In this document: positions 1 through 3,000 of the stretch, one piece after another
Position numbering within the stretch: the first letter of the stretch is position 1
Layout of the letters: the number at the start of each line of letters is the position of its first letter
DNA from: a virus
Lineage: Duplodnaviria; Heunggongvirae; Uroviricota; Caudoviricetes
IMG/VR virus record: IMGVR_UViG_2703718673_000002
Strand: one strand, 5' to 3'
DNA length: 5,489 nucleotides
Program-made: the position numbers

Positions 1-3000
1 ATATTGAGTTTGGATTCTGGCTGGATTCAGCTGCGAGCGACAAAAACGCTCTGTGTGCTCACTGGCTAACTGAGGCTGACGACGCGCTAAATTCTGAGTG
101 GATAAGCCACGGTGCAATCTGGAATAACCCACCGTACAGCAATATCAGGCCGTGGGTGGAAAAAGCCGCTGAGCAGTGCATACAACAGCGACAGACGGTA
201 GTGATGCTTGTGCCAGAGGATATGTCTGTCGGATGGTTCAGCAAGGCTCTGGAGAGTGTTGACGAAGTTCGCATCATCACTGATGGACGGATTAATTTTA
301 TCGAACCATCGACAGGGCTGGAGAAGAAGGGAAACAGCAAAGGCTCAATGTTGCTGATTTGGCGACCGTTCATCAGTCCTCGACGGATGTTTACTACCGT
401 ATCCAAAGCGGCATTGATGGCGATCGGGCTGGGCGTCAGGAGGGCTGCATGAGGCGACAGCGACGAAGTATCACCGACATCATCTGCGAAAACTGCAAAT
501 ACCTTCCAACGAAACGCTCCAGAAATAAACGCAAGCCAATCCCAAAAGAATCTGACGTAAAAACCTTCAATTACACGGCTCACCTGTGGGATATCCGGTG
601 GCTAAGACATCGTGCGAGGAAATGACAATGCTTTTAATTCAACCTGGATTTGGACTTAGCATCAAAAAAGGCCACATGTTTGGCGAGAAAGAGTCACAAC
701 GAAAAATGGTGTCTATCCGGTTGCCATTTATCAGTATTTATTGGCTAAACAGGGAGGCAACAAATTATTGGTATACATGCGCCAGAGCAGCATTTAACGA
801 CCCTGACTGGTTTGTGAAAAACCACCACGCAGTTCGTCAGGCAAAGAGAAAGGCCAATATGACATACATGAAGGCGTATCAAAAAGCATGGAAAGAACAC
901 CGCGATCGATACCAACAAGACATGGAAAAGCTTGAATCAGAAAACATGGAATTAAGACGAAAGCTCGGTGAAGCAAAACGAGACATTGATGCTTACAAGC
1001 GACTTTTTAATGGTGAAAGCCATGCTTAGCCCATCCCAATCCCTTCAATACCAGAAAGAAAGCGTCGAGCGGGCTTTAACGTGCGCTAACTGCGGTCAGA
1101 AGCTGCATGTGCTGGAAGTTCACGTGTGTGAGCACTGCTGTGCAGAACTGATGAGCGATCCGAATAGCTCAATGTACGAGGAAGAAGACGATGGCTAAAC
1201 CAGCGCGAAGGAAATGCAAAATATGCAAGGAATGGTTTCACCCGGCATTCTCAAATCAGTGGTGGTGCTGCCCGGAACACGGAACTCAGTTAGCACTCAA
1301 ACTACAAAGTAAACAGCGAAAAAAAGCGGAAAAAGCAGCAGAGAAGAAACGACGACGAGAGGAGCAGAAACAGAAAGATAAACTGAAGATTCGAAAACTC
1401 GCCTTAAAGCCCCGCAGTTACTGGATTAAACAAGCCCAACAAGCCGTAAACGCCTTCATCAGAGAAAGAGACCGCGACTTACCATGTATCTCGTGCGGAA
1501 CGCTCATGTCTGCTCAGTGGGATGCCGGACATTACCGGACAACTGCTGCGGCACCTCAACTCCGATTTGATGAACGCAATATTCACAAGCAATGCGTGGT
1601 GTGCAACCAGCATAAAAGCGGAAATCTCGTTCCCTATCGCGTCGAACTGATTAACCGAATCGGGCAGGAAGCAGTAGACGAAATCGAATCAAACCATAAC
1701 CGCCATCGCTGGACTATCGAAGAGTGCAGGGCCATCAAGGCGAAGTATCAGCAGAAACTTAAAGACCTGCGAAACAGCAGAAGTGAGGCCGCATGACGTT
1801 CACAGTAAAAACCATTCCTGACATGCTCGTTGAGGCATATGAAAATCAGACCGAGGTAGCCAGAATACTGAACTGTAGTCGCAACACGGTCAGAAAATAC
1901 ACTGGCGATAAAGAAGGAAAAAGACACGCTATTGTCAACGGTGTTCTTATGGTTCATCGCGGATGGGGTAAAGATACTGATGCGTGATATCCGGCAGGTT
2001 CTTGAGTGCTGGGGGGCATGGGCGGCAAATAACCATGAGGATGTGACCTGGTCACCCATTGCCGCCGGATTTAAGGGACTGATCCCCGAAAAAGTAAAAT
2101 CACGCCCGCAGTGCTGTGACGATGATGCGATGGTGATATGCGGGTGTATAGCCCGCCTTTACCGGAACAATCGCGATCTGCATGACTTGCTGGTTGATTA
2201 TTACGTGCTGGGGGGGACGTTCATGGCGCTGGCACGGAAACATGGGTGCTCTGACACNNCATGATAAGAGTGGTTACATTGCCACGCTGCTTAACCCGCC
2301 GATGCGCGGGTTTTTTTGTACCCAGAATCCTGTGAGCTATACGGAAAGTACACAGAAAGGAAGGTGCGACCACAATTAATAACAAAATCTTAAAAATTGC
2401 ACATGGCACTATTAGTTTTCTAAATATTGTGTATTTTTTGTATTGCAGGATGACCCTGTAACGAAGTTTGCGTAACAGCATTTTGCTCTACGAGTTTGCC
2501 AGCCTCCCCCAGTGGCTGGCTTTTTTATGTCCGTAACATCCTGTGTATCAATAAATGTTGTTGTCTACGTACGTCAAGTAGTCGCATGAGATCTGACCAG
2601 ATATGTTAAGGTTGCAGCTCTCTTTGAATATAATTATCATTTTCATTACGTTATTGTTACGTTTATCCGGTGCGCCGTAAAACGCCGTCCTTCAGGGGGT
2701 GGAGGATGTCAAGAATATAGTTATCGTATGGTGCTCAAGGAGTATTGTGTAATATGAAAATAATTATTTTTAGAGTGCTAACTTTTTTCTTTGTTATCTT
2801 TTCAGTTAATGTGGTTGCGAAGGAATTTACCTTAGACTTCTCGACTGCAAAGACGTATGTAGATTCGCTGAATGTCATTCGCTCTGCAATAGGTACTCCA
2901 TTACAGACTATTTCATCAGGAGGTACGTCTTTACTGATGATTGATAGTGGCACAGGGGATAATTTGTTTGCAGTTGATGTCAGAGGGATAGATCCAGAGG

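Follow-up and report, generated by a model that had tools for sequence, protein, structure and literature searches.

The stx1AB genes are carried as cargo by their prophage, and their phage-driven expression depends on the antiterminator Q and the late promoter pR'. The DNA analysed here is a stretch of 5,489 nucleotides from the IMG/VR virus record IMGVR_UViG_2703718673_000002 (hereafter the window), in which the Q gene upstream of stx1AB runs into two uncalled bases and, directly beyond them, into a stop codon. The question raised by this locus is whether Q has been inactivated by a mutation, whether it is intact but obscured by a sequencing ambiguity, or whether the sequence as written leaves something out. 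We consider it very likely that the two N's are an under-sized scaffold gap in a known and ordinary Q933-pR' region, and neither a mutation nor a one-base error.

An Stx1 prophage segment with an interrupted Q gene

The list of open reading frames and the sequence itself give the gene order ninG, ninH, Q, stx1AB and esterase, which is that of an Stx1 prophage segment (Table 1). Direct comparison of window positions 1-2257 and 2260-5038 with VT1-Sakai (locus L001, prophage Sp15) and EDL933 CP-933V (L002) yielded zero mismatches, and a megablast search with window positions 1780-2760 found matches of 100% identity in VT1-Sakai, CP-1639 and other Stx1 phages as well as in many complete STEC genomes. 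Every one of these matches was split in two pieces, with 981 query bases corresponding to 1148 record bases. The Q933 gene and the pR'-StxS-tR' region are already known, and they are met here interrupted by an assembly gap.

Table 1. Position, strand and supporting evidence of the features discussed in the text
Feature	Position	Strand	Basis
ninG	1191-1796		ORF list
ninH	1793-1987		ORF list
Q-type gene, start codon ATG	1980	+	ORF list
Q, 5' part (Q933 allele of Stx1 prophages), codons 1-92 and two bases of codon 93	1980-2257	+	no mismatch to references; Pfam
NN, very likely a scaffold-gap placeholder for about 169 bp	2258-2259	.	flank spacing in references and relatives
Earlier "+1 frame", 39 codons, noncoding, outside Q	2260-2379	+	BLASTP, Pfam, shuffles, references
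CAT, 3' half of the pR' -10 hexamer TATCAT	2260-2262	+	reference scan and AP000400, coordinate conversion
Late-transcript leader, pR' start to tR' U-run (StxS-L equivalent), predicted ends	2269-2526	+	ends inferred
TACATTGC, "putative Q-utilization" in AP000400 (L001 3664-3671)	2276-2283	+	annotation
First leader hairpin and T-run, terminator-like	2293-2317	+	7-bp stem, 5 GC pairs, then TTTTT (terminator scan)
tR' intrinsic terminator, GCCAGCC...GGCTGGC then TTTTTT	2498-2526	+	AP000400 (L001 3886-3914); folds; 258-nt end
stx1A	2754-3701	+	ORF; annotation of identical references
stx1B	3711-3980	+	ORF; annotation of identical references
Large esterase-like gene (DUF6645 / 933W L0105-like), start	4491		ORF list
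Second scaffold gap, 24 N for 202 bp of the esterase gene (DUF6645 / 933W L0105-like)	5039-5062	.	reference comparison

Read from its ATG, Q continues through codon 93 (ACN) and codon 94 (NCA) to a TGA as codon 95 (2262-2264), so that a product of 94 aa results as the sequence is written; on this point translation agrees with the first-pass annotation. In the VT1-Sakai and EDL933 CP-933V records, on the other hand, RefSeq and GenBank annotate an "antitermination protein Q" of 144 aa, and the same length was found in 62 of the 64 copies examined whose start lies inside the sequence. The 278 nt of Q present in the window, up to the gap, match the EDL933 and Sakai genes without mismatch and are 100% identical to the Q933 genes of EDL933 CP-933V (WP_001204849.1), VT1-Sakai (BAB19591.1) and phage 933W; the neighbours are also the same, with ninG and ninH upstream and the pR' leader, tR' and stx1AB downstream. 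Compared with these references, the final 157 nt of the gene and the 12 nt that follow are missing from the window, all of them within the gap, which would leave no biological difference.

The part of Q that is present was recognized by the Pfam family PF06530 (Phage_antitermQ) at 134.7 bits against a cut-off of 26 (E=1.9e-39), the fragment covering profile positions 1-92 of 118, a coverage limited by the gap, whereas the 144-aa reference covers positions 1-118. QuuD, the Q protein of the cryptic prophage DLP12, belongs to the same family as Q933 and has a similar N-terminus. The structural prototype of the family is Q21 of phage 21 (PDB 6P18 / 6JNX), which is distant in sequence (162 aa vs 144 aa for Q933) but could be aligned with Q933 over residues 20-99 and 8-86, respectively (phmmer, 35 bits, E=6.8e-8). 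Each of the two genes is directly followed by a late promoter, which is accompanied by a -10-like pause element and a terminator; for the window, the late promoter is found in the references at the position of the gap, and the TACATT hexamer and the terminators are present. From the sequence, Q in the source strain is very probably intact, a 144-aa Q933 of the Q21 family. The gap falls within a stretch that looks like the helix-turn-helix of the Q21 type, and a real 94-aa product would probably not bind DNA; there is no sign that such a product exists. A frameshifted or truncated Q pseudogene was also considered and set aside, as the contiguous, fully called sequence contains no premature stop.

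Two relatives carry Q frameshifts in called sequence. In one (L071, IMGVR_UViG_2880372215_000001), Q starts at oriented position 2216 and is shifted at a run of six G's, equivalent to the run of seven at window positions 2210-2216, giving a 94-aa product; in the other (L058, IMGVR_UViG_2529293036_000033), the product is 56 aa. Both frameshifts may reflect true defects or else sequencing errors in homopolymers, and since they occur, an intact Q is not guaranteed in every strain.

The two N's and the stretch they replace

The first-pass annotation had interpreted the N's as two ambiguous bases hiding a one-base error, beyond which Q would continue in the +1 frame through 2260-2376 to a total of about 133 aa and end about 18 bp before pR', described as the usual spacing. 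Two observations speak for this: the frame from 2260 is indeed open for 39 codons, to a TAA at 2377-2379, and 133 aa falls inside the size range of the family. An open frame of at least this length is, however, to be expected by chance, as composition-matched shuffles produced one with P=0.09 for that frame and P=0.26 for any of the three. Moreover, the 39 residues gave no BLASTP similarity to Q, and when the 133-aa chimera resulting from a one-base correction of 1980-2379 was compared with PF06530, the match reached no further than profile position 94 of 118; positions 95-118 were unmatched, so that the added residues brought no gain. In the references, the DNA of 2260-2379 is in Q's own frame, yet it lies downstream of Q's TAA stop, as it lies after both the Q stop and the pR' -10 in all complete relatives; RefSeq annotates no CDS at the equivalent stretch, which includes a terminator-like hairpin. 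Reference comparison, Pfam coverage and BLASTP refute the one-base model, to which we assign next to no probability, and with it fall both the length of 133 aa and the proposed C-terminus.

What occupies the position of the N's can be read from the references directly. VT1-Sakai and EDL933 CP-933V both carry 169 bp in place of the window's NN, reaching from the third base of Q codon 93 to codon 144, through the stop and over 12 further bases, and including the pR' -35 hexamer (TTTACG) together with the first three bases of the -10 hexamer (TATCAT). In these references, the TGA at 2262-2264 follows the true stop of Q by 12 nt and lies in the -10/start region of pR'; it appears in the Q frame of the window only because of the false junction at the N's. 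Likewise, the apparent "+1" relation of the two frames arises because 169 minus 2 is 167, which is no multiple of three. The same spacing is found in a wider set of relatives. Complete E. coli genomes were covered by a spread sample, in which the 54 records that matched both flanks all showed a flank span of 468-472 bp, compared with 302 in the window. A scan of IMG/VR viral contigs for anchors 155-185 nt apart retrieved 82 contigs, which together with three reference loci gave 85 occurrences; in all 85 the distance between the anchors is exactly 170 nt, and they enclose six interiors that are nearly identical to each other. The reverse scan, for a junction with anchors no more than 12 nt apart, matched 0 contigs among the IMG/VR viral contigs and 0 in the genome contig collection, and hence in no relative scanned; in a local search the same pattern, in which an N matches an N in the sequence, did match the window itself. 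Judged from the relatives, the gap very probably contains the remainder of Q and the late promoter pR'. If this reading is true, the region across window positions 2200-2320 would be about 288 bp at full length and would carry CTGTATAGG...CTGCATAT.

The conclusion of the first-pass annotation that the truncation is an artefact of the sequence and that Q is probably intact, rather than inactivated by mutation, is supported by the references and the relatives, though the artefact is of another kind than the one proposed. The opposite view would be that about 167 bp are genuinely deleted at the junction, the site being marked by two uncalled bases, and that the 52 C-terminal codons of Q and the -35 and -10 hexamers of pR' have been lost with them. 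Such a strain would carry an Stx1 prophage without late transcripts, prophage induction would no longer drive stx1 through the prophage's own Q and late promoter, and stx1 would be left to its own Fur-regulated promoter. The sequence as written has exactly such a junction, defective Q genes are known in a few relatives, and Stx1 prophages such as Sakai's have been described as cryptic (PMC7547250). Nevertheless, we regard a deletion as very improbable, on several grounds: (i) the junction is absent from the 82 viral contigs, the 54 sampled complete genomes and the genome collection; (ii) a clean event offers no reason for N's at its junction; (iii) both of its ends would need to fall exactly 29 nt from the nearest differences between Stx1 and Stx2a prophages; and (iv) the esterase gene would need an unrelated "deletion" of its own that follows the same 29-nt rule.

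Boundaries of the gaps and their probable origin

The 29-nt rule emerged when two prophages of strain Sakai, Sp15 (Stx1) and Sp5 (Stx2a), were compared, with the differences placed in L001 coordinates. The 169-bp gap is flanked by the differences at 3450 and 3676, starting 29 nt after the former and ending 29 nt before the latter. In the esterase gene, the 202-bp gap keeps the same distance of 29 nt from the differences on either side of it, at 6398 and 6657, and neither missing stretch contains any Sp15/Sp5 difference. The final base of the window lies 28 nt past the last difference (7027). Upstream of ninG, Sp5 differs completely from Sp15, and the rule covers five edges, the four of the two gaps and the 3' end of the window. 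That a single rule holds at five boundaries is the mark which a de Bruijn-graph assembly would leave if k was about 29 and a repeat present in two copies had been collapsed. The frame change of the esterase gene at its N run, where 202 minus 24 leaves 178, is the same assembly artefact as in Q. The first-pass annotation had pointed to the same pattern of frame switching at N's in both genes, and this parallel holds; the cause, on the other hand, is a 202-bp gap and not base ambiguity.

These observations can be accommodated by a simple sequence of events. The record would be a small scaffold produced when short reads were assembled into a draft genome, the source being a Shiga-toxin-producing E. 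coli whose genome most likely contains a second lambdoid prophage (Stx2a / 933W-like) with an identical Q933-pR' segment. Any stretch identical in both prophage copies would collapse in the assembly graph; the unique contigs would run k-1 (28) bases into the repeat and stop there, the collapsed repeat would be omitted, and the scaffolder would bridge the contigs with mis-sized runs of N, 2 for 169 bp in one case and 24 for 202 bp in the other. A gap of 2 N is unusually short for a scaffolder, and this counts against the reading of the NN as a scaffold gap. Over its full 5.5 kb, the window has the look of three unique contigs (1-2257, 2260-5038 and 5063-5489) bounded by prophage repeats.

It could also be supposed that the N runs date from a step later than assembly, in which masking or data processing, rather than a scaffolder, removed sequence and left the N's. 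Some public collections do mask stretches as N; masking, however, normally preserves length, and only an assembly-graph process explains five independent edges that track k-1 = 28 bases from the differences between the prophages. We give this alternative little credence, and were it true, the biological outcome would be unchanged, the missing bases being an artefact all the same.

Returning to the under-sized scaffold gap, two consequences follow from the boundary rule. By this rule, another copy of Q933-pR', probably Stx2a / 933W-like, is most likely present in the source strain, and such a copy, being identical inside the gap, speaks against a private mutation of the Stx1 copy there. The signature suggests a second Q933-type prophage, probably Stx2a, which is relevant to virulence typing. 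For risk assessment there is no sign of a defective Q, and a normal Q933-pR'-tR' switch should be assumed in this Stx1 prophage. More generally, short N runs in draft scaffolds can represent far longer stretches, and a "repair" of the reading frame across them invents proteins, here a false Q of 133 aa, and misplaces regulatory sites, here pR'.

The late promoter, its leader and the terminators

Beyond the gap, features of the references were transferred by coordinate conversion (3' of the first gap, L001 equals window plus 1388). A consensus promoter scan of the reference found TTTACG-16-TATCAT at L001 3623-3650, the identical interval that AP000400 annotates as "putative late promoter". This pR' overlaps the end of Q and, apart from the CAT listed in Table 1, lies within the missing stretch, so that the arrangement earlier proposed, with Q ending shortly before the promoter, does not hold. 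The candidate pR' that had been placed near 2397 falls inside the late-transcript leader; the promoter scan did not detect it, and it is not conserved in the Stx2a copy. Another promoter-like match on the forward strand, CTGACA-18-TACATT at 2251-2280, was discarded since it straddles the NN and exists solely through the false junction; its second hexamer is the -10-like element that AP000400 lists under "putative Q-utilization".

With the canonical distance of 7 nt after the -10 hexamer, transcription would start at 2269, and the distance from there to the end of the U-run at 2526 is 258 nt. The same 258 nt have been reported from the PR' start to the tR' 3' end in both the Stx1 and the Stx2a phage of Sakai, where the terminated leader, StxS-L, is processed to the 74-nt sRNA StxS (Sy et al. 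2020, PMC7547250). Window positions 2269-2526 are identical to the PR'-tR' sequence of the Sakai Stx1 phage and end in an intrinsic terminator, which places the StxS locus (EcOnc15; Sy et al. 2020, PMC7547250) here, with its promoter cut off by the gap and its ends predicted; the 74-nt StxS-S would sit at the 3' end of the leader, at about 2453-2526. The published Sakai PR'/tR' coordinates are offset from NC_002695.2 by +135 (Sp15) and +142 (Sp5), and for this reason the start at 2269 rests on the promoter hexamers and the 258-nt spacing. Direct conversion of the published coordinates leads to window positions 2404 and 2661, where there is neither a promoter nor a terminator, and was rejected as a record-version offset.

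The leader folds better than its shuffles (z=-2.9), with both hairpins formed. The first of them corresponds to the putative rho-independent terminator for the pR' transcript that AP000400 places at L001 3683-3705. The tR' hairpin occupies 2498-2520, is followed by a U-run to 2526 and appears in both the MFE and the centroid folds. At about +8 of the transcript, the hexamer TACATT (2276-2281), which was picked up by the promoter scan as -10-like, is a candidate sigma-dependent pause element by analogy with the mechanisms of Q21 and lambda (10.1101/651190).

[quoted passage not shown] Antitermination activity at pR' has been published for related Stx phages, according to work cited in PMC6266700 and PMC7547250. 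By extension from the Q21 family, Q933 would bind its site at pR', load onto RNA polymerase paused at TACATT and form a ring at the RNA exit channel; after prophage induction, the polymerase would then read through the hairpin at 2293-2317 and through tR' into stx1AB and the lysis genes. Without Q, pR' would give just the terminated leader of 258 nt, the precursor of the StxS small RNA.

An Rfam scan of the window returned no family for the pR' leader or StxS, its sole match being to STnc100. This sRNA family (RF02076) was matched over its full length between stx1B and the esterase gene, at 4059-4268 on the forward strand (176.7 bits, E=2.7e-41), and the match is probably the "EcOnc42" that Sy et al. 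placed 3' of the toxin genes (PMC7547250).
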